Shown here: in pieces, positions 2,728-40,256 of the stretch
Position numbering within the stretch: the first letter of the stretch is position 1
How the letters are laid out: each line of letters begins with the position of its first letter
Virus record (IMG/VR): IMGVR_UViG_2909288124_000001
DNA: 42,470 bases
Reading direction: 5' to 3' (one strand)
Source of the DNA: a virus
Lineage: Duplodnaviria > Heunggongvirae > Uroviricota > Caudoviricetes
Position numbers and translations under genes: made by a program
The notes under the pieces: model-generated
What the model saw: only the letters and a program-made list of their open reading frames with translations
The model's database searches: none
What the model was told of the DNA's origin: nothing

Positions 2728-3300
2728 TTACATTTCAGGTTGCGTTATGACAGTCCCAACAGGGTGATAGCGGTAGATCGTTGACAGTCCAATATCATAG
2801 ATAATTGCCAGCCGCTTTCTGTCATACCCTTTCTGGAGCAATCTTGCGATCTGCTCATGCTGCTCCTTCGTCAGTTTCGGGCGACGTCCTCCAACTCTTC
2901 CTTGTGCTCGCGCAGCAGCCAGTCCAGCCAGCGTGCGCTCAACTATCAGTTCACGCTCCATTTCTGCCAGTGCACCCATCATATGAAAAAAGAACCTTCC
3001 CATCGGAGTGCTGGTATCGATTGAATCCGTCAGACTGCGAAAATTGACACCTTTTGCGCGTAGCTCTTCTGTGAGAGCAATGAGGTGTTTCATTCTTCTA
3101 CCCAACCGATCCAGCTTCCAGACCACCAATGTATCCCCTCTTTTAAGGCACTTTAAAGCGCGTTTCAGGCCTGGTCGTTCCGACTTGGTTCCGCTCATTT
3201 TGTCCTCAAAAATCTGTTCACATCCTGCGCACATTAATGCATTGCGTTGCAAATCTGTGTTTTGGTCATTTGTTGACACACGTATGTAGCCAATCAGCAT
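2728..3300 (-). CDS. gin: Serine DNA invertase (Gin/Cin/Pin/Hin family)
   Basis: From internal ATG at 3300 (RBS AAGGGAG upstream): MLIGYIRVSTNDQNTDLQRNAL...GDTLVVWKLDRLGR...ALAEMERELIVERT... closely matches Mu Gin as recalled; 190 aa; sits next to an invertible tail-fiber segment. Confidence 0.9.
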   Translation of the reverse strand: MLIGYIRVSTNDQNTDLQRNALMCAGCEQIFEDKMSGTKSERPGLKRALKCLKRGDTLVVWKLDRLGRRMKHLIALTEELRAKGVNFRSLTDSIDTSTPMGRFFFHMMGALAEMERELIVERTLAGLAAARAQGRVGGRRPKLTKEQHEQIARLLQKGYDRKRLAIIYDIGLSTIYRYHPVGTVITQPEM

Positions 3301-3354
3301 TAAAAATACTCCCTTTTGAGTGGTTAAAGTACTGAGATAATGTGGGGAGGATTT

Positions 3355-3380
3355 GAGAGATAAACGTTGGTTTGGGGGAA
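3355..3380. other. gix/hix-like recombination site A (GAGAGATAAACG-TT-GGTTTGGGGGAA)
   Basis: Hin/Gin-type architecture (AAAC-NN-GGTTT core); homology with the fiber-gene site starts exactly at the central TT; crossover would keep the fiber reading frame. Confidence 0.5.
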
Positions 3381-3800
3381 GGCTCGGCGCTGCCCGTTGG
3401 TGTACCTGTTCCGTGGCCCACTGCCACACCGCCAGCAGGCTGGTTAAAGTGCGACGGGCGCGCCTTTACAAAAGAACAATATCCTGTTCTGGCCAGAGTC
3501 TACCCGACCCTCCGTCTTCCCGATTTACGCGGTGAGTTTATCCGTGGATGGGACGACGGGCGAAAAGTGGATACAGGGCGCGATCTGCTTTCACGGCAGG
3601 ATGGTACAAGTTTTTCTCATTACGCAGGTAATTTTGACATTGGGTCTGGTCATTCAATCAATAACTATGACCAAATCGTTGACAACCAACCTGGATTCTC
3701 CCGTTTTTCATTTGCAGGTCCTTCGCTAGGCGATGGGGTTAATTATGTGACCATTCGTCCCCGTAACATTGCGTTTAATTACATCGTAAGGGCGGCATAG
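3369..3800 (+). CDS. Silent alternative tail-fiber C-terminal cassette A (collar-like domain plus variable tip; no start codon of its own)
   Basis: Encodes LGEGSALPVGVPVPWPTATPPAGWLKCDGRAFTKEQYPVLARVYPTLRLPDLRGEFIRGWDDGRKVDTGR... ending RPRNIAFNYIVRAA; in frame from crossover site A. Confidence 0.7.
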   Translation, partial: GLGEGSALPVGVPVPWPTATPPAGWLKCDGRAFTKEQYPVLARVYPTLRLPDLRGEFIRGWDDGRKVDTGRDLLSRQDGTSFSHYAGNFDIGSGHSINNYDQIVDNQPGFSRFSFAGPSLGDGVNYVTIRPRNIAFNYIVRAA

Positions 3801-3819
3801 AAACGTTGGTTTAGGAGAA
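3794..3819. other. gix/hix-like recombination site B (CATAGAAACG-TT-GGTTTAGGAGAA)
   Basis: Second direct copy of the site, 17/19 identical to site A core; followed by a second about 215-bp copy of the collar-domain repeat. Confidence 0.45.
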
Positions 3820-4323
3820 GGCTCGGCGCTACCCGTTGGTGTACCTGTTCCGTGGCCCACCGCCACACCGCCAGCAGGCTGGTTAAAGTGCGACGGGCGC
3901 GCCTTTACAAAAGAACAATATCCTGTTCTGGCCAGAGTCTACCCGACCCTCCGTCTTCCCGATTTACGCGGTGAGTTTATCCGTGGATGGGACGACGGGC
4001 GCAAAGTTGATACAGGACGTAAGTTGCTGTCCGCACAAGGGGCAACGCTGTTAAGAACAGCAATGCTGGATTATTATAACCAGGACACTACGGGAACCTC
4101 GGGGATAGTCGGCATGGGATTCAACAATGAAGATTCCATTACAGACCTTCGTGAGGGCAGCTTTAAAATGCCGGACGGGACAACATTCAGTAATCCTGCC
4201 ATGGCAATGTCAGACAATGGTATGCAGGCTACTATTCTGACCTCTATCAGAAGCGGGTATGCGAAGGGTATCACTGTCAGACCCCGTAGCATTGCACTTA
4301 ATTACATTGTGAGGGCAGTTTAA
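3808..4323 (+). CDS. Silent alternative tail-fiber C-terminal cassette B (collar-like domain plus distinct variable tip)
   Basis: Open frame from site B: same collar-domain sequence then ...KLLSAQGATLLRTAMLDYYNQDTTG...GITVRPRSIALNYIVRAV; immediately followed by a tail fiber assembly gene. Confidence 0.7.
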   Translation, partial: GLGEGSALPVGVPVPWPTATPPAGWLKCDGRAFTKEQYPVLARVYPTLRLPDLRGEFIRGWDDGRKVDTGRKLLSAQGATLLRTAMLDYYNQDTTGTSGIVGMGFNNEDSITDLREGSFKMPDGTTFSNPAMAMSDNGMQATILTSIRSGYAKGITVRPRSIALNYIVRAV

Positions 4324-4937
4324 TGAGTAACACTGCAGTTCTGGATGAAAACGGTATCGCCACTGTAGCGGGCGATATCACTGTATATCACTATGACGAG
4401 GAAACCCGGGAATACACCTCATCCTCTGTGGAGTATCTCGCCCTTGGGGTGGGTACTCCGGCACATTCGTGCGCCGATGCACCGCCGGAAGCAATTTCGG
4501 GTTACGTGGTTTGCCGGACTGCCACGCTGAACGGGTGGGAGCATGTGCCTGATCACCGCGGCGAGACGGTATACAGCACGGAGAACGGTAACCCCGTTCT
4601 GATTACCCAACCGGGTGATTACCCGGCGGACACCACCACAAAACAGCCAGCCACGCCATGGGATACCTGGAACGGTGAGGCGTGGGTAACCGATACTGAA
4701 CGGCAGCGAGCCGCAGAACTGGAGGTTGCCAGACAGCAACGCCAGCAACGGGTGAAACAGGCGATGGCGTCCGTCGATCTTATCAACCTCAAACTGCGTG
4801 CTGGTCGCAGTCTGAAACCAGAAGAAACGGCAAAACTGAACGCCGTGCTGGATTATATCGACGAGCTGAACGCACTGGATATCAGCAAGGCACCTGAAAT
4901 CAGCTGGCCGGAAGCGCCACTGGCGCTTGCCGGCTGA
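4323..4937 (+). CDS. Tail fiber assembly protein (Tfa / Mu U / P2 G family)
   Basis: 204 aa; motifs WEHVPDHRGETVY, TWNGEAWVTDTE, APEISWPEAP parallel lambda Tfa as recalled; located inside the invertible segment, currently opposite in orientation to the expressed fiber gene. Confidence 0.85.
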   Translation: MSNTAVLDENGIATVAGDITVYHYDEETREYTSSSVEYLALGVGTPAHSCADAPPEAISGYVVCRTATLNGWEHVPDHRGETVYSTENGNPVLITQPGDYPADTTTKQPATPWDTWNGEAWVTDTERQRAAELEVARQQRQQRVKQAMASVDLINLKLRAGRSLKPEETAKLNAVLDYIDELNALDISKAPEISWPEAPLALAG

Positions 4938-4943
4938 ACGGTA

Positions 4944-5894
4944 TCACGCCGCCCTCACGATATAGTTAAATGCGATATTGCGGGGGCGAGCTGATACATA
5001 AGCCCACCAGTCATATCTTTGTGCACCTTTAGAGGATGCATCAAATATCCACTTTTTGCCATTTAAGACCCCCAGTTGATTAGAGGTTAAAGCGTCACCA
5101 AATCCGTATTGTGTAGAGCCGAGCGAACTGATATCTCCGGTATCATTATCATCAAAACCGGATACGATAGTCCCTTCCTGAAATGAAAGTAGCGCACGCC
5201 CGGTATCAACCTTGCGACCACCGTCCCATCCACGGATAAACTCACCGCGCAAATCGGGAAGACGGAGGGTCGGGTAGACTCTGGCCAGAACAGGATATTG
5301 TTCTTTGGTGAACGTAGCTCCGTTGCACTGTAACCAGCCTGCTGGCGGTGTGGCGGTGGGCCATGGAACCGGTACACCAACAGGCAATGCAGAGCCTTCC
5401 CCCAAACCAAGGTAATTGAGGACATCTTTTATACTGCCCTTAGCGATAATAGCGCGACCAATAGCTGTAAGGGTTGCCAGCGCTGCGCGGTCTGCTCCGG
5501 TAAAATAAGGCAACCGATCTGCTGCAGTGGCAAGTCCTGCCAGAGCAGTGAGCGTGGCATCTGCCGGTTGTTTTCCGTTTGCCAGGTCGTATGCAGCCTT
5601 GACCGCTTTTGGTGTGGCGGCCAGCGTTTCAGAGGTGCTGTTGGTGGCACTGCTCAGTTGGGTGAACCCCTTAGCTGTCAGTGTCGCGTCCGGGTGGTTA
5701 CGGGAACGTACGTGTTCAGCCAGTGACTGTGCGGCTTCCTCCGTTTTCTTCTTCAGCCATTTCGTCCTGTTTGCCAGTTGCCGGGGGGCTCGATTTGATA
5801 TCCCGTCTGCGCCACCCAGAACCGGATCTGATGTCTCCAGTTGATAGATATTTTCTTCCCACTTTTCTGTTTCATTCAGGTTTCCCATAATCAA
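4944..5894 (-). CDS. Tail fiber protein (constant N-terminal part plus currently joined variable C-terminal cassette F)
   Basis: 316 aa; last gene of the minus-strand tail operon; contains an inverted copy of the collar-domain repeat and ends in RPRNIAFNYIVRAA. Confidence 0.85.
   Translation of the reverse strand: MIMGNLNETEKWEENIYQLETSDPVLGGADGISNRAPRQLANRTKWLKKKTEEAAQSLAEHVRSRNHPDATLTAKGFTQLSSATNSTSETLAATPKAVKAAYDLANGKQPADATLTALAGLATAADRLPYFTGADRAALATLTAIGRAIIAKGSIKDVLNYLGLGEGSALPVGVPVPWPTATPPAGWLQCNGATFTKEQYPVLARVYPTLRLPDLRGEFIRGWDGGRKVDTGRALLSFQEGTIVSGFDDNDTGDISSLGSTQYGFGDALTSNQLGVLNGKKWIFDASSKGAQRYDWWAYVSARPRNIAFNYIVRAA
5397..5422. other. gix/hix-like recombination site F inside the tail fiber gene (inverted relative to sites A and B)
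   Basis: Fiber-strand sequence CTCAATTACC-TT-GGTTTGGGGGAAGG; right half-site and downstream identical to site A, left half-site unrelated; TT falls on codon positions 2-3 of Leu in ...NYLGLGEG... Confidence 0.5.
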
Positions 5895-6469
5895 CTGCTC
5901 CCGTGGTTATAACTGCCATCATGGATGGCGGTATTGTTATAGCGAATGGCCACAGACTGATACTCCAGGCTGGCCAGATGGCAGCGGGCCGGTGCAAATG
6001 CAGCCAGCGTCTGACGCAGCATCGCGGCCTGATCGTTAGTAATGGGCTGTTTCAGAATAACGCGATAAACTGCCCAGGCGGCTGCATCTCCATGAACAAA
6101 CAGTCCGTTATAGCTGCGATTGCCGTCGTAACTGAGACGACCTGTGCCTTCAATCAGATCCACTTCACCAAAGCCAAAACGGCGGATAACTTCCCGGATT
6201 GACCACGGCGTCCCTTTATACCGGTGCAGTTCGATGGCTGCTTTTATAAGCATGCGGCGAACATCGTCCGATTCCGCCAGCTCCCAGCCATCGCCAGACA
6301 GTGAGAACTGCTCGCCCAGCCATGGCAGCGCGGAACTGTCGACGATATCGACGAGAAAGACCATCAGTACGCTCAGGTCGATGTTATCCAGCCGTCCTGC
6401 CAGTCTTCCCAGCGTCCTGAGACTGATATCACCCTCAAGCGGTGGCGGGAGTTGTAATGGCTCAGTCAT
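5891..6469 (-). CDS. Baseplate/tail protein, P2 gpI-like
   Basis: 192 aa, position between gpJ-like and tail fiber genes, consistent with P2 gpI / Mu gp48 (assignment by synteny and size). Confidence 0.65.
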   Translation of the reverse strand: MTEPLQLPPPLEGDISLRTLGRLAGRLDNIDLSVLMVFLVDIVDSSALPWLGEQFSLSGDGWELAESDDVRRMLIKAAIELHRYKGTPWSIREVIRRFGFGEVDLIEGTGRLSYDGNRSYNGLFVHGDAAAWAVYRVILKQPITNDQAAMLRQTLAAFAPARCHLASLEYQSVAIRYNNTAIHDGSYNHGSS

Positions 6470-7565
6470 CAGACACTCCAGTCATGTTAAGAGTGATTGC
6501 CGTACAGTTTGCCCATTCGTTTTCTGCCACCACCCGCAGTGCCGGTGTCACCAGTTCAACCTGGTACACCCCGGAAACGGACAATGCACTGATAATCTGG
6601 CTGGGGACAATATCGCGCCCCAGCGTGGCGGCACGTGATGCCACCCAGTTCTGTATGGCGCTGTTAGCGGCATCTTTTACAGACCTGGCATCCTGATCAC
6701 GATAGATCGTAATCCTGGCTTCAATGGTGTAATCCACCTTCACTGGTGTTTTAGCCCGCACTGTATCAGTGAGTGGCCTGACTTTCTCATCAGAGCAGAA
6801 ACTCTCTACCAGCGTGAGAACACCGCCGTCCGGCAGACCGGTACTGAGCAGCGGATACAGATCTACGGTCCCGGGAACCGGGGAAAGCACAGCAACATCG
6901 ACAATGTTGGGATGGGCCTGCATGGCATGAAAGCGGTATGCGCCACGGCTTCCGGCATTGGTGAATGACTCCGGGGCCAGCCTGATACGCTCCCGGAGCC
7001 TGTCATCGTCTTCCTGTTCTGAACCGCCGGAACTGGCCGTCAGATTGCTCACCAGCAGGTCGACGTTATCAATCTCATCGAGTAACTGACTGACCTGCGC
7101 AGGTTGCCAGCCGTTACCAGCGGTACCGGGTTCGGTACAGGTGGACGTGACATTGACCAGCAGCAATCCGGCCTTCAGTACCACATCTGTATCGGTGGCA
7201 AAAATAACGCTGTCGGAAGCGCTGACGCGGGTGCCTGCCGGGATCAGCACATCAATGGCCAGTGCCTCATCTACGGAGAACTGGAGCGTGGTAGTGGCAG
7301 GCTGCGCGGCAAGACGGTATACACCGACCAGTTCACCGAGGTAATCAATCATCGGCTCACGGGCAAAGGCGACCAGATTCTGCTTTGCTGCCTCCTGTAC
7401 CGCAACCCTGACCAGCATTTCGCGATAGGCCCACAGATCAATCAGCAGACGTTCTGCCTGTGCCGGGTACAGCGTTTTGCCGGTATCCGCTTCATACTTC
7501 GCAATCATTTCTGCCGTGATTTTGTCGGCATCGCGTTCAATAAAATCGGGTTCTGTCAGCGCCAT
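6462..7565 (-). CDS. Baseplate protein J-like (P2 gpJ / Mu gp47)
   Basis: 367 aa ORF in conserved W-J-I order upstream of the fiber gene. Confidence 0.75.
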   Translation of the reverse strand: MALTEPDFIERDADKITAEMIAKYEADTGKTLYPAQAERLLIDLWAYREMLVRVAVQEAAKQNLVAFAREPMIDYLGELVGVYRLAAQPATTTLQFSVDEALAIDVLIPAGTRVSASDSVIFATDTDVVLKAGLLLVNVTSTCTEPGTAGNGWQPAQVSQLLDEIDNVDLLVSNLTASSGGSEQEDDDRLRERIRLAPESFTNAGSRGAYRFHAMQAHPNIVDVAVLSPVPGTVDLYPLLSTGLPDGGVLTLVESFCSDEKVRPLTDTVRAKTPVKVDYTIEARITIYRDQDARSVKDAANSAIQNWVASRAATLGRDIVPSQIISALSVSGVYQVELVTPALRVVAENEWANCTAITLNMTGVSDD

Positions 7566-27637: not shown

Positions 27638-27751
27638 GTGTGTCTCCTCGTTTGGTGGAGACAGCATCACAAATGTGGCGGGATACGGATTTTAAACAGC
27701 GTTAATAGTGAAGATGTAAACGTGCACTGCATGATGACTTTGAAAGAACGA

Positions 27752-27779
27752 CCAGCCCGGTACCCGAACACCGGGCTGG
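27752..27779 (-). terminator. GC-rich stem-loop (10-bp perfect stem CCAGCCCGGT/ACCGGGCTGG), putative minus-strand intrinsic terminator insulating the late lysis operon
   Basis: Perfect inverted repeat with 8-nt loop; on the minus strand followed by UCGUUCUUUC; lies between dam (plus) and holin (minus). Confidence 0.3.
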
Positions 27780-27884
27780 CCATCGCCCCACAGGAATGCG
27801 CTGTGAGCCGACCGAGGTTCAGTCAGTCTCGCGAGACCAGACTAGCCTGCCATATTTTTTATAATTGTAAAAGGCTTACAGATT

Positions 27885-28655
27885 ATGAAAATGCAGACAT
27901 TACCCATCGTTCCATGGATTGGTGGCAAACGCCGCCTTGCAAAACACATCCTGCCGCTGTTTCCGGCGCATGAATGTTATGTGGAGCCGTTTTGTGGGGC
28001 AGCAGCGCTCTATTTTCTTAAGGTACCCGGCAAGATCGAAGTCATTAATGATATCAACGGTGAACTGGTGAACCTGTATCGGGTAGTAAAACATCATCTG
28101 GAAGAATTTGTGCGCCAGTTCAAATGGGCGCTGGTCAGCCGGCAGATCTACAAATGGCTGCAGATCACCCCGGAAGAAACACTGACGGATATCCAGCGTG
28201 CAGCACGGTTCTACTACCTTCAGAAGCAGGCGTTTGGAGGCAAGGTGGCGGAGCACAGCTTTGGTACCTCCACCATATCCCCGCCACGCTTCAACCTGCT
28301 GCGTATTGAAGAAGAACTGTCAGCGGCACACCTGCGGCTTTCCAGAACGGTCATAGAACACATGGACTGGCAACAGTGCATAGAACGATATGATCGCCCG
28401 CATACGTTGTTCTACTGTGACCCTCCATACTGGGGAACGGAAGGTTATGGTGTGGAGTTCGGACTAGAAAATTATGATCATATGGCAGATTTAGCACGCA
28501 GGATCAAAGGGAAGATGATTATATCGGTGAACGATATCCCGGAAATGCGGCAGGCATTCAACGGTCTAAATATTCAGTCGGTTGATATCAGCTACAACCT
28601 CAAGATCACTGGCAAATCCAGTTGCAAGAAGGAACTCATTATCCTCAACTTTTGA
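27885..28655 (+). CDS. DNA adenine methyltransferase (Dam family, N6-adenine)
   Basis: 256 aa; motif I FCGAAALYF and motif IV DPPY (FYCDPPYWG); N-terminal WIGGKRRL typical of Dam-family enzymes. Confidence 0.85.
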   Translation: MKMQTLPIVPWIGGKRRLAKHILPLFPAHECYVEPFCGAAALYFLKVPGKIEVINDINGELVNLYRVVKHHLEEFVRQFKWALVSRQIYKWLQITPEETLTDIQRAARFYYLQKQAFGGKVAEHSFGTSTISPPRFNLLRIEEELSAAHLRLSRTVIEHMDWQQCIERYDRPHTLFYCDPPYWGTEGYGVEFGLENYDHMADLARRIKGKMIISVNDIPEMRQAFNGLNIQSVDISYNLKITGKSSCKKELIILNF

Positions 28656-29850
28656 CCGAATAGTAAGACTTCATGCAGTGAATCAAGTACTGCATGAAGT
28701 CAAGGGCTGGTTTTGTGTACCAAAAATAAACAGTGATAGCGGTAATAATTCCCATAACTAGAACACCACGTATAATCCAGAACGTACGTTTCTGCGTGTC
28801 TAGTCGCGCAGAAATACTGCTAAATACACCAGCCACGTCATCTTTAATGAAGGAATATTCCTTATTAATCTGTTTTTCTTTGTATTCAATTTCTTCGCCT
28901 AAGGCCTTTATAGATTGCATCTGGTTCGAAAGTGCCAGCCAGATTAACGTTGCAGCAAAAATGCATCCCAGAAGAATTATTGTGTTTGTTATCCCTTGGC
29001 CTGACCATTTCGTAGCCACTTTGAATTGGGTAGCTACGATAACAGAGGCAACAGGAATGCCAAGTATATGGTTCTGGATATCTGAAAACGCTTTGTGGAT
29101 TTTACCCATTTCTTCGACTTTTGCAGCACGCAGTTGATCCATTACTTTGTCATAAGAGAATCCAGAAGAGTAGATACGATACCCTTTCAGAAACTTTTCA
29201 TGCAGACGCTGAATATTGTCCAGTAAATAAGCGAATACTAGAGGTGAATCAATTCCATCACTAACTGCTTGGATACTTTCAATCAGAATATCTAGCTTCT
29301 GATCCTTATGGGTATCATCATTGAAACAAGCTATAAGGTTATCAAGATACTCTCTTTGCAAATTTTGTACATTTTCTGCAGCGAAGTGCGGTAATAGCTT
29401 GATAACTTCTTTTTTCAGAAAAACTAACTGACAAGTTGAGTTATCAAAGTAGGCCGCGGCCTCTTTTAGCAGGTTAACGAACTCGAGAATCTTCCGGTAG
29501 TTGCTGATGAAAACGGGGATATCTTCATCATCATTACGAAACTTTGTTTCTAGGATGAAGTAATTAGCTGGCTCAAGGCACTGATGCTTTGGAGCATTTA
29601 GCAATTTTTCATGGGTGGAAAACACAAGTCCCAGTCCACTCCGTGGTGACGTCACACGTAGGATGATCGTGTTACCTGGAGCGATAGTGCCTGTATCAAT
29701 AGAAAGACCATATTCACGAGGATCATCAAGCAAAGTATCAACCAGATCACAATCGGACTGATCTAAGAGCAACAGCGAACCGACACGAAACCCCTCTTGG
29801 AATTCCATACGACGATACAGAGCTGTCAGCATCTCAAATGAAATCGCCAC
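28645..29850 (-). CDS. Hypothetical protein with soluble N-terminal domain and two C-terminal transmembrane helices (candidate effector of a defence/exclusion cassette)
   Basis: 401 aa; predicted TM segments ITNTIILLGCIFAATLIWLALS and FWIIRGVLVMGIITAITVYFWY; AT-rich; 2-bp gap to upstream gene. Confidence 0.6.
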   Translation of the reverse strand: MAISFEMLTALYRRMEFQEGFRVGSLLLLDQSDCDLVDTLLDDPREYGLSIDTGTIAPGNTIILRVTSPRSGLGLVFSTHEKLLNAPKHQCLEPANYFILETKFRNDDEDIPVFISNYRKILEFVNLLKEAAAYFDNSTCQLVFLKKEVIKLLPHFAAENVQNLQREYLDNLIACFNDDTHKDQKLDILIESIQAVSDGIDSPLVFAYLLDNIQRLHEKFLKGYRIYSSGFSYDKVMDQLRAAKVEEMGKIHKAFSDIQNHILGIPVASVIVATQFKVATKWSGQGITNTIILLGCIFAATLIWLALSNQMQSIKALGEEIEYKEKQINKEYSFIKDDVAGVFSSISARLDTQKRTFWIIRGVLVMGIITAITVYFWYTKPALDFMQYLIHCMKSYYSVKS

Positions 29851-29852
29851 GA

Positions 29853-30860
29853 TTAAACCTCAGTCATCCACATTTCCCTAAATTCTTCAGGTACATTACG
29901 TAGGGTGATAATATTTGTTTCCGGATCATAATCAATATAGCCTTCAGTTTTCCCTTCCCGGTCAAACTTAAGTTCCCAATATTTAGACTTGCCTTTAAAA
30001 GATACCAGAGCCCGAATGACTCGACCATCAGGAACGAAGCCATCCGATAACTCCAACTCTTCAGCAGCAAGTTTACCAGATAACTCCTCGGGAGCCTGGG
30101 GCCAAATGGCATTAACAAGGGTTTCAAGACTAAGTGGTTCACCAGCCTTACTTAGTGCATGTAAGTGTTCAAACGCACTCTTAAGAAATGCATCTTTTTC
30201 AGCGCCGTCAAGTCCTTTTTCTGCCGCAAATGCTTTTAAAACGTCACGTAACTTTTCAGACTCTCGTTTGGCGATTAAGACATCATTACAGCCGAGGAAC
30301 TGTTTAAAATAGTTTGAAACATTACCTTGCCCCTTAAGAAAACTGATATAGCGCTCTGCGCCACTTTCCCACGCGGTTAAGTCAATGCGCCCAGCCATAC
30401 GCAGCTTAGCAATATCAAGATAGGTACTATCTTGGATGTTAAAATCATCTGTGACAGTGGATCCAATGGTAGCGCTTACAATAGCTATCAACAGGTGTTC
30501 ATTGTGTCCTATCACGATATTTGCAAAAAGAACATAACCACCAGTAGCCATGTTTTCTCGCTGAGAACGTTCCGTCAGGTGATGCATCATTCGGCAGGAA
30601 CTTTGGTAGAAATCATCAACACCTTCGAGAAAGTCCCCAGCCATTCGTTCCATAGGATAGTTATCCGTATCGCCTTCAAAATAGCCATAACCTTTACCTG
30701 TGCGTCCTGCATATTTTGCACAAATATCGTTTATAAGGCGCTGGGAGGCTTCAGTAACTAGACCTTCTTCAGGACTCAATCTCTCAGAAGCGTCTCCATT
30801 TTGTTGTTTGTCTAAAATGTGAACTACAACGTGTTTAACTTCAATGGTCTGCTCAGACAT
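29853..30860 (-). CDS. NA37 (NdpA/YejK)-like nucleoid-associated-protein homologue (candidate sensor of a defence/exclusion cassette)
   Basis: 335 aa (same length as E. coli YejK); stretches GGYVLF, GRIDLTAWES, RYISFLKG, FLG resemble YejK as recalled from memory; ATG with AAGGTGGA RBS; directly downstream of repressor gene. Confidence 0.55.
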   Translation of the reverse strand: MSEQTIEVKHVVVHILDKQQNGDASERLSPEEGLVTEASQRLINDICAKYAGRTGKGYGYFEGDTDNYPMERMAGDFLEGVDDFYQSSCRMMHHLTERSQRENMATGGYVLFANIVIGHNEHLLIAIVSATIGSTVTDDFNIQDSTYLDIAKLRMAGRIDLTAWESGAERYISFLKGQGNVSNYFKQFLGCNDVLIAKRESEKLRDVLKAFAAEKGLDGAEKDAFLKSAFEHLHALSKAGEPLSLETLVNAIWPQAPEELSGKLAAEELELSDGFVPDGRVIRALVSFKGKSKYWELKFDREGKTEGYIDYDPETNIITLRNVPEEFREMWMTEV

Positions 30861-30930
30861 TAGCTATCCACCTTATTTTTTATTGCTTAATGGCAAATAA
30901 TTTCTGCTATATGTTCTCGTTAGGAACACA

Positions 30931-31338
30931 TTAACCCACATTTTTTAACCGCTCAATCGTTGCGGATAATTCCTTCAGTTGTTTTTCCATCTCAATCACA
31001 CGCTGTTTTTCTTCAGCGCCTCGCATGAGATCTCGCCGAACCTCAGGATCTAACTGGTTTAGAAGTTCAAGCATTTTAAGGTCTGACGGGCTGAATTGAT
31101 GTTGTGTTGGTACAGCAACAATTTCTTTAGATGGAATATGTTCTTTACCGGTAAGTAGCCAATCGATCGATACACCCAAATGGGTACTTAGCGCAACAAG
31201 AGCCTCTGCGTTTGGTTCTCTCTCTCCACGCAAATAGTTTTGAAGTGAGCGATATGGAATTTTTGATAAGTCAGATAATGCCTTTATTGTCATGCCATTA
31301 GCATCCATCACTTCACGCAATCTCTCTTTTGTACTCAT
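30931..31338 (-). CDS. Prophage repressor (HTH XRE-type, c-like)
   Basis: From ATG at 31338: helix-turn-helix region ...MTIKALSDLSKIPYRSLQNYLRGEREP... plus C-terminal coiled coil; divergent from early operon. Confidence 0.7.
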   Translation of the reverse strand: MSTKERLREVMDANGMTIKALSDLSKIPYRSLQNYLRGEREPNAEALVALSTHLGVSIDWLLTGKEHIPSKEIVAVPTQHQFSPSDLKMLELLNQLDPEVRRDLMRGAEEKQRVIEMEKQLKELSATIERLKNVG

Positions 31339-31354
31339 TTGAACATATCTCAAT

Positions 31355-31382
31355 TTGACACACTCATTTGGGTGTGTACAAT
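31355..31382 (+). promoter_or_regulatory. Putative early promoter (TTGACA-16-TACAAT) with embedded inverted repeat ACACAC-N8-GTGTGT (candidate operator)
   Basis: Near-consensus sigma70 hexamers 45 bp upstream of ner-like start and 17 bp from the repressor start codon. Confidence 0.4.
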
Positions 31383-31426
31383 AGACCCAATAGAGTACAT
31401 CATAACCTAACAGGAACACGGTGCAT

Positions 31427-31651
31427 ATGAACAAACAACAAGTTCGGGCACGGCTGGTTGAACGAGGCAGTAGCTTGCGCCAGTTCGCGCTTAACGCGGG
31501 CTATGAACCACGAACAGTCACCCAGGCAGTCAGTCGCTGGGCTGGTAAAAGTGAACTACCTCGCGGTCGTTTGACTTATCGGATTTTGCGAGATCTATCG
31601 GTTGCAATAGGTAAAGAAGTTACCCCCGGTATCCTTAAGGAGGCGTCATGA
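31427..31651 (+). CDS. ner: Ner-like DNA-binding protein
   Basis: 74 aa from ATG at 31427; pattern ...SLRQFALNAGYEPRTVTQAVSRW... parallels Mu Ner (...LSALSRQFGYAPTTLANALERHW...) as recalled; first gene of early operon. Confidence 0.6.
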   Translation: MNKQQVRARLVERGSSLRQFALNAGYEPRTVTQAVSRWAGKSELPRGRLTYRILRDLSVAIGKEVTPGILKEAS

Positions 31652-39449: not shown

Positions 39450-39609
<160 letters not shown>

Positions 39610-39615
39610 CCTTCA
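39610..39615. repeat. Target-site duplication CCTTCA, right copy
   Basis: Identical to 2644..2649. Confidence 0.6.
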
Positions 39616-40256
39616 CTGGCCGCCCGAAAGAGACCGACATCGATATGTCCCGCCTTGATGGTTTTCCACAGCAGAGTCATGAAACGTGCGTCACTGATCC
39701 TGCGGCGTACAGCCTTCATCAGCAGTCGATGATGTACGGTGTCGAAGTAACTGGACAGGTCGCCTTCAATCACCCAGCGTCCCCGGGTTTCACCACAGTC
39801 TGTGAGCTGTAATTTCACCGTGCGGATCGCGTGGTGGACACTGCGCTCAGGCCGGAAGCCATATGAGAGCGTATGAAAATCACTCTCCCATATCGGCTCC
39901 ATCGCCATCAGCATGGCCCGCTGAACAATACGATCCCGCAACGCGGGGATACCCAGTGGTCGCAGTTTGCCGTTGCTTTTAGGGATGTAAACCCGTCTGG
40001 CGGGCAAGGGCTGGTAGTGGCCTGAGAGTAATTCATCCCTGAGGATTTGCAGCTCAACAGCCAGTCTGGCCTGTAGCATTGTTTTGTTCACGCCATCAAC
40101 GCCGGGGGTATGGGCCCCCTTTGATGAAAGCGTGATCCGCGCCGCTTCAGCCAGCCATTCTGGTTGTGTTATCAGACGCAGCAGCCGTTGAATCCGTAGG
40201 GACGGATCGGTGGCTGCCCATGTGGCAAGCTTGCGTTGCATTTCGCTGATTATCAA
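39616..40256 (-). pseudogene. Group II intron reverse transcriptase, N-terminal fragment (RT domains 0-3)
   Basis: ...IPKSNGKLRPLGIPALRDRIVQRAM...LSYGFRPERSVHHAI...WVIEGDLSSYFDTVHHRLLM...; last two codons (Asp-stop) come from the prophage end. Confidence 0.8.

Follow-up and report, generated by a model that had tools for sequence, protein, structure and literature searches.

The window analyzed here, i.e., the whole 42,470-nucleotide stretch of DNA in the IMG/VR virus record IMGVR_UViG_2909288124_000001 (Duplodnaviria; Heunggongvirae; Uroviricota; Caudoviricetes), has an identical match in the genome of Escherichia coli FAM21845 (NZ_CP017220.1) and contains a Mu-like transposable prophage whose late region is inverted. 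The central block of this prophage consists of a DNA adenine methyltransferase gene (dam), two minus-strand genes that form a compact cassette, and a repressor gene (Table 1). The first gene of the cassette, gene 1, encodes a nucleoid-associated protein (NAP) of the YejK/NA37 family, and the second, gene 2, encodes a protein with a predicted C-terminal membrane region. A preliminary description of this DNA gave both open reading frames the same boundaries as they have in RefSeq, correctly placed the co-oriented repressor gene directly upstream of them, and proposed that the pair comprises an undescribed prophage defense or exclusion module. The two genes are separated by only 2 bp, and a GAGG Shine-Dalgarno sequence is found within the end of gene 1 (the junction reads GAGGTT-TAA-TC-GTG); this combination suggests that they are translationally coupled.

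Table 1. Features of the cassette and its surroundings in the window
Feature	Coordinates	Strand	Basis
Gene 1 (ORF1), YejK/NA37-family nucleoid-associated protein, 335 aa, ATG start	29853..30860	-	Open reading frame; same coordinates in RefSeq
Gene 2 (ORF2), 401 aa, GTG start, acidic N-terminal part and predicted C-terminal membrane region	28645..29850	-	Open reading frame; same coordinates in RefSeq
70-bp spacer from the repressor stop codon to the start of gene 1; ribosome-binding site AAGGTGGA	30861..30930	-	Sequence
Cassette-specific DNA (swappable module)	~28597..30911		blastn against sister prophages
CI-type helix-turn-helix (HTH) repressor	30931..31338	-	HTH_3, E = 3e-12, and Phage_CI_repr, E = 1.5e-6 (Pfam); PHROG transcriptional repressor families
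Phage Dam-type N6-adenine methyltransferase (dam)	27885..28655	+	MethyltransfD12, E = 7e-28; PADLOC MTase_II, E = 6e-115
Mosaic accessory-plus-immunity region, from the holin gene to the second early gene	27709..31646		blastn breakpoints; other gene sets in sister prophages L009-L012

The product of gene 1 matches the Pfam profile NA37 (PF04245) over its full length, with residues 12-327 aligned to positions 1-324 of the 325-position profile (E = 1e-80; 272 bits versus a cut-off of 24.6). It also matches phrog_3767 (E = 7e-117) and aligns end to end, over positions 4-330, with the YejK structure PDB 9be2 (E = 7e-30). The three motifs on which the preliminary description had based the NA37/YejK likeness all have evident counterparts in YejK: GGYVLF corresponds to GGFVLF, RIDLTAWE to RIDLTEWE, and RYISFLKG to RYLTFLKG. 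By all these profile matches, the gene 1 product is a bona fide member of the NA37/YejK family. It shares its length and domain with the housekeeping YejK (NdpA) protein of E. coli. Nevertheless, its score of 186.2 bits against the NCBIfam model of the housekeeping YejK equivalog (NF001557) falls below the cut-off of 341, which at the level of profile scores marks it as a paralog carried by a mobile element, not as a YejK ortholog. The two proteins also differ in their genomic settings: housekeeping YejK is encoded by a stand-alone chromosomal gene, whereas gene 1 is mobile and always paired with the gene for its membrane partner. None of the PADLOC models matches the gene 1 protein.

The gene 2 product matches no Pfam family but is recognized over its full length by phrog_5023 (E = 2e-142). 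Its N-terminal part (approximately residues 1-261) is soluble and acidic, with a net charge of -11 and 14.9% Asp plus Glu (pI of 5.1 over residues 1-265), whereas the remainder of the protein is basic and bears hydrophobic segments, which hydropathy analysis places at residues 285-311 and 356-378, with a weaker one at 262-280. The preliminary description, with its soluble domain of about 270 residues followed by two C-terminal transmembrane (TM) helices, came close to this layout. The negative net charge of the N-terminal domain is a feature of all 40 aligned family members, ranging from -1 to -15. An AF2 model of the gene 2 protein, built from the 40-sequence alignment, has a mean pLDDT of 81.6 and predicts an alpha/beta N-terminal domain followed by two very long helices, 285-331 and 333-378. 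Among solved and viral structures, the model had no significant neighbor, showing only a generic long-helix likeness to CorA and ClyA, and a profile search against the PDB sequences found nothing. The family itself is large: when 1.84 billion cluster representatives (clusters at 50% identity) were searched with its profile, 1,286 members were obtained at an E value of 1e-3 or lower, mostly of 380 to 430 aa among the matches listed.

Both proteins show similarity to the components of DS-1, which was validated as an anti-phage system in the DefensePredictor study (bioRxiv, January 2025; Science, 2026; PMC13092281), where the “YejK nucleoid-associated domain” is listed among the domains newly validated in defense. 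DS-1, also from E. coli, consists of a 391-aa NA37 protein (DS-1A, WP_000355468.1; gene at 220602-221777) and a 404-aa partner (DS-1B, WP_000150292.1; gene at 221780-222994), with the genes separated by 2 bp and the sequences provided in Table S8 of PMC13092281. In that study, DS-1 decreased plating of phage Bas1 by 7.6 logs, of Bas26 by 2.7, and of Bas3 and T3 by 1.7, each value coming from a single screen plate (Table S7, PMC13092281). DS-1 and the window cassette share the gene order, with the NAP gene preceding that of its partner, and the 2-bp spacing. The DS-1 proteins are represented in NCBIfam by a pair of models, NF053868 (“DS1_1_antiphage, nucleoid-associated anti-phage protein”) and NF053869 (“DS1_2_antiphage”); the former matches the gene 1 protein with an E value of 1.4e-17 and the latter matches residues 74-366 of the gene 2 protein with an E value of 3e-21. 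In direct BLASTP comparisons, the gene 1 protein is 23% identical to DS-1A (E = 8e-9), and the gene 2 protein is 23% identical to DS-1B over 302 aa (E = 6e-10). Furthermore, the gene 2 family profile aligns with DS-1B in hhalign with a probability of 95.5% (E = 1.6e-8, 267 columns), and the hydrophobic segments of DS-1B (267-286, 288-309, and 363-380) coincide with those of the gene 2 protein. The 53 relatives of the window cassette that were fetched are all about equally distant from DS-1, at 21 to 26% identity, so that the window clade is separate from DS-1. At this level of similarity, the cassette is best classified as a distant relative of DS-1, not its equivalog.

The association of the two genes extends far beyond the window. 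Among gene 2 homologs with identities from 22 to 100%, an NA37 gene was found immediately upstream and on the same strand in all 39 testable IMG/VR loci, as well as in six other contexts, namely, lambdoid prophages of Proteus and Salmonella, a Shewanella contig, Sinorhizobium phage phi2LM21, an Acinetobacter phage, and a Paraburkholderia chromosomal island, where the pair is located near an Mrr-type restriction gene. Sequence identities of the two proteins co-vary (Spearman correlation of 0.91), and in 35 of the 39 loci the NAP is the more conserved partner. Thus, the pair is always inherited together.

Of the 40 viral loci, 14 are Mu-like. The prophage family that carries the cassette is found in 642 of the 5,426 complete E. 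coli genomes, and only 19 of these 642 contain the cassette; in those 19 genomes it occupies differing chromosomal positions, as expected for a transposable phage. Gene 2 homologs are encoded in just 6 of the 50,697 phage records, so gene 2 is not a core phage gene. A megablast search with the cassette against the same 50,697 records produced no match; the cassette occurs in prophages but is missing from the deposited phage genomes. In blastn comparisons with the sister prophages, homology on the dam side stops at 28576-28596 and homology on the repressor side (with sister prophage L012) starts at 30912, delimiting the cassette-specific DNA. The pair is thus optional, swappable cargo that moves among Mu-like prophages, lambdoid prophages, and a chromosomal island. 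Both lambdoid prophages that were examined have it between the antiterminator and lysis genes.

The exact gene 1 protein is encoded on at least 1000 contigs. Its 90% identity cluster includes proteins from E. coli, Salmonella (including Typhi), Klebsiella, Citrobacter, Enterobacter, Yersinia, and Pectobacterium, all of them annotated only as “nucleoid-associated protein” or “hypothetical protein.” The accessions WP_000003711 and WP_001007984 are mentioned neither in the full texts of the papers searched nor in the DefensePredictor supplements.

A second point of comparison is provided by the PANGU systems, in which YejK-like proteins are paired with effectors (Li et al., bioRxiv 10.64898/2026.04.06.716658). 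Type II PANGU is bicistronic and encodes a YejK-like NAP (Pag2A) and a partner (Pag2B) that combines an acidic, DNA-mimicking (DMK) N-terminal domain with a C-terminal TM region. Both genes are required for its activity, neither is toxic alone, and cultures show an abortive-type behavior. The NAP leaves the nucleoid upon infection with T4, which escapes by inactivating its host-DNA endonuclease gene denA; a validated type II example, PANGU-Ecu, comes from uropathogenic E. coli (10.64898/2026.04.06.716658). The cassette in the window has the same organization, a bicistronic operon for a YejK-like NAP and a partner with a C-terminal TM region, and could represent the same system, its relative, or another cluster described in that study. 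The carriers differ, in that the operons in the preprint were chosen near defense islands, with prophage carriage not mentioned, whereas the carrier in the window is a transposable prophage.

Taken together, the homology of both proteins to the validated DS-1 system, the type II PANGU architecture, the strict linkage of the two genes, and their status as rare cargo make it probable that these two prophage genes constitute an anti-phage system of the DS-1/type II PANGU kind. This estimate refers to the anti-phage function of the pair, with the mechanism rated separately below. The designation “defense module” is well supported by homology, and that part of the preliminary description was sound. 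The module is not undescribed, however: with DS-1 validated (PMC13092281), NCBIfam models available for both of its proteins, and the PANGU systems presented in a preprint (10.64898/2026.04.06.716658), this kind of cassette has already been published, and the one in the window is, judging by its profile scores, a divergent prophage-borne clade that lies outside the NCBIfam equivalog thresholds.

By analogy with these systems, the gene 1 protein is presumed to be the sensor, a counterpart of DS-1A and Pag2A, and the gene 2 protein the effector, a counterpart of DS-1B and Pag2B. If the behavior reported for PANGU applies here, in an uninfected lysogen the YejK-like protein would sit on the chromosome, away from its partner. 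An incoming lytic phage that degrades the host chromosome would release it, and the released protein might then activate the membrane partner by binding to its acidic, DNA-like N-terminal domain. The activated partner could be expected to damage or depolarize the membrane, so that the cell would no longer support phage growth, resulting in abortive infection. A transposable or lambdoid prophage presumably does not destroy host DNA when it goes through lytic growth itself, which would allow a temperate carrier to hold such a sensor without triggering it. This scheme of genome-degradation sensing coupled to a membrane effector is best regarded as tentative, a possibility that falls somewhat short of even odds.

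Several observations weigh against the assignment of the cassette to the DS-1/type II PANGU kind or against the proposed mechanism. The anti-phage function of the window clade is predicted from sequence homology, and both of its proteins are only ~23% identical to those of DS-1. Their scores are far below the equivalog cut-offs (63.7 versus 330 bits for the gene 1 protein with NF053868 and 75.9 versus 315 bits for the gene 2 protein with NF053869), and the pair is not represented among the models of PADLOC v2 (2023). The gene 1 protein resembles housekeeping YejK (186 bits) more closely than it resembles DS-1A, which carries a 41-residue Cys-rich N-terminal extension (CxxC...CxxC, residues 1-41) ahead of its NA37 domain; neither the gene 1 protein nor YejK has such an extension, and it possibly constitutes a functional difference between the clades. 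The likeness to type II PANGU is one of architecture, and the acidity of the gene 2 N-terminal domain is modest, weaker than in classic DNA mimics. The mechanism derives from a single preprint, which itself states that the activation of Pag2B is unknown (10.64898/2026.04.06.716658). Finally, no convincing sigma-70 promoter could be recognized in the conserved ~60 nucleotides upstream of gene 1.

The same divergence permits a different account, according to which the cassette belongs to an independently assembled, prophage-specialized lineage of nucleoid-protein immunity. Such a lineage could have another trigger and phage spectrum, acting, for example, against temperate or transposable phages instead of the nuclease-wielding lytic ones. 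The ~23% identity to DS-1 and the proximity of the NAP to housekeeping YejK are both compatible with this account, and the ~400-aa gene 2 protein, whose predicted fold has no significant solved neighbor, could form a membrane pore of an unseen kind. This account is rather unlikely to be correct.

The location of a gene for a predicted membrane protein in the immunity region of a prophage might also indicate superinfection exclusion, a non-abortive function that would block DNA entry or another early step, with the NA37 protein serving as a regulator or partner and with neither genome-degradation sensing nor cell death involved. Membrane exclusion proteins occupy comparable moron slots. In addition, DS-1 acts most strongly on the siphoviruses Bas1 and Bas26, unlike PANGU, for which T4 or Bas34 was reported. 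A pure entry block is hard to square, however, with the strict co-inheritance and co-variation of the membrane protein with a DNA-binding protein. The abortive-type behavior of type II PANGU cultures, from which phages escape through the loss of a nuclease and not through changes in the receptor or injection, also speaks against it (10.64898/2026.04.06.716658). On balance, exclusion is an unlikely function for the cassette.

Alternatively, the NA37 protein could serve the prophage itself, organizing or silencing the AT-rich immunity region or aiding transposition, with the membrane protein being an accessory; the host proteins HU and IHF, after all, assist in Mu transposition. The similarity of the gene 1 protein to housekeeping YejK, the position of the cassette beside the repressor gene in an AT-rich region, and the Mu-like nature of 14 of the 40 viral loci would all agree with such a role. 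It is nonetheless very unlikely, given that just 19 of the 642 genomes with this prophage family contain the cassette, that the pair is also found in lambdoid prophages and in a non-phage chromosomal island, and that a core or regulatory function would need no obligate membrane partner. An addiction module that stabilizes the prophage, in which the membrane protein would act as the toxin and its NA37 partner as the antidote, would be compatible with a mobile, tightly coupled two-gene cassette that has a potentially membrane-damaging component but is most improbable for proteins of 335 and 401 aa, which are large and unlike typical antitoxins.

The preliminary description compared the cassette with the RexA-RexB pair of phage lambda. 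In the window, the comparison holds with respect to position, as in both cases a two-gene cassette is found downstream of the repressor gene and in the same orientation. By analogy, the cassette can also be likened to RexA-RexB in combining a putative cytoplasmic sensor with a putative membrane effector, which in lambda causes abortive infection. The likeness goes no further: RexA belongs to a different protein family than the gene 1 product, PADLOC models revealed no sequence relationship of either window protein to RexA or RexB, and the place behind the repressor gene is not kept among the other carriers of the cassette, such as the lambdoid prophages mentioned above. In two Mu-like IMG/VR loci, L019 and L030, the repressor gene and the cassette are separated by dam.

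The profile searches suggested in the preliminary description, which yielded the full-length Pfam NA37 match for the gene 1 protein, produced a single PADLOC hit for the pair, a weak match of the gene 2 protein to KwaA of the Kiwa system (E = 8e-5). It was confined to the TM region, appeared in just 3 of the 40 family members, and was not accompanied by any match of the gene 1 protein to KwaB, so it was rejected as compositional.

With regard to its expression, the cassette in the window may well be transcribed in the lysogen from upstream, through the repressor gene; the 70-bp gap between that gene and gene 1 contains no terminator-like site. No terminator was detected after gene 2 either, i.e., in the convergent junction of dam and gene 2, and the numbers of promoter and terminator sites in the overall scan were not above those in shuffled sequence. 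The ~60 nucleotides upstream of the gene 1 start codon travel with the cassette and, as seen in the alignment, are kept where the upstream neighbor differs. In L019 and L030 (cassette at 4991-7170), dam, which lies between the repressor gene and the cassette, is divergent from gene 1; on this arrangement, transcription of the cassette must start from a promoter within the ~300 bp that separate dam from gene 1. Of this intergenic region, just the final ~60 nucleotides are common with the window. In carriers other than that in the window, the cassette would have to use another promoter.

The ends of the carrier prophage could be identified owing to its insertion into a reverse-transcriptase gene, the halves of which are found at positions 1767-2669 and 39609-40241. 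The left part encodes the C-terminal half of the reverse transcriptase and the right part encodes the N-terminal half; the interrupted gene contains a group II intron-like motif, GVPQGG..SPLL. The sequence CACCTTCA is found at both junctions. The split gene and the presence of CACCTTCA at both ends define the boundaries of the prophage along with a 5- to 8-bp target duplication, so that the prophage extends from ~2650 to 39615, with the cassette well inside it. The insertion site is surrounded by fragments of IS256, IS3, IS30, and IS1.

The minus strand of the prophage encodes the tail, head, and lysis functions, with the late operon at ~4944 to 27670. The cassette is therefore on the same strand as the late operon, contrary to the preliminary description, which had it on the opposite one. 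The plus-strand early operon codes for a small Ner-like HTH protein, a DUF3102 protein, a DDE transposase, an ExeA-family ATPase in the position of MuB, Gam, and Mor. In the arrangement of the 4944-39449 segment, the prophage departs from the layout of Mu: its late operon runs opposite to the early one, which is why the immunity region is central and not at the end. We take this genome architecture to resemble that of the BcepMu-type transposable phages. The tail module (gpD, gpX, tape measure, tube, and sheath) is P2-like. At 2728-5894, a gene annotated in RefSeq as a serine recombinase (Gin-like invertase) adjoins oppositely oriented tail-fiber and tail-fiber-assembly genes, which, by analogy with Mu, suggests an invertible host-range segment.

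The cassette is AT-rich, as had been estimated by eye in the preliminary description, with a GC content of 41.5%, compared to 56.3% in the late region and 54.2% in the early region. However, the repressor gene, at 41.4%, is just as AT-rich, so the low GC content marks the whole immunity region, not the cassette alone. The dam gene separates the cassette from the late operon and converges on gene 2, with the 3' ends of the two genes overlapping by 11 bp (28645-28655). It is found in sister prophages that have no cassette and thus represents phage backbone, outside the cassette. A functional link between dam and the cassette was considered and rejected: dam occurs in the sister prophages without the cassette and is absent near most other homologs, and its location next to the pair is probably a coincidence. 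In Sinorhizobium phage phi2LM21, a convergent adenine methyltransferase gene also adjoins the homologous pair.

In the sister prophages L009-L012, the slot of the cassette is filled with other, uncharacterized cargo. In one arrangement, genes for a 328-aa protein with a Flk-like N terminus and an ~200-aa protein are located directly behind the repressor gene; the other occupants are a DUF2441 protein, a 158-aa protein annotated as “ABC transporter ATPase,” and a pair of 297-aa and 114-aa proteins. A PADLOC search with 10 of these alternative cargo proteins produced no significant match, a result that argues neither for nor against a defense hotspot. The alternative occupants can be considered candidates for further accessory or defense functions.

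The cassette opens no new category of defense systems. If the inference regarding its function holds, temperate phages, including transposable Mu-like prophages, would be distributing through the Enterobacterales, in plug-in form, a recently discovered immune strategy in which a nucleoid protein keeps watch over the integrity of the chromosome. In terms of annotation, thousands of genomes bear this candidate defense system without a label; the prediction of host range for phage therapy is affected as well. Furthermore, the cassette marks a slot for cargo in a prophage family that is present in 642 of the 5,426 complete E. coli genomes.

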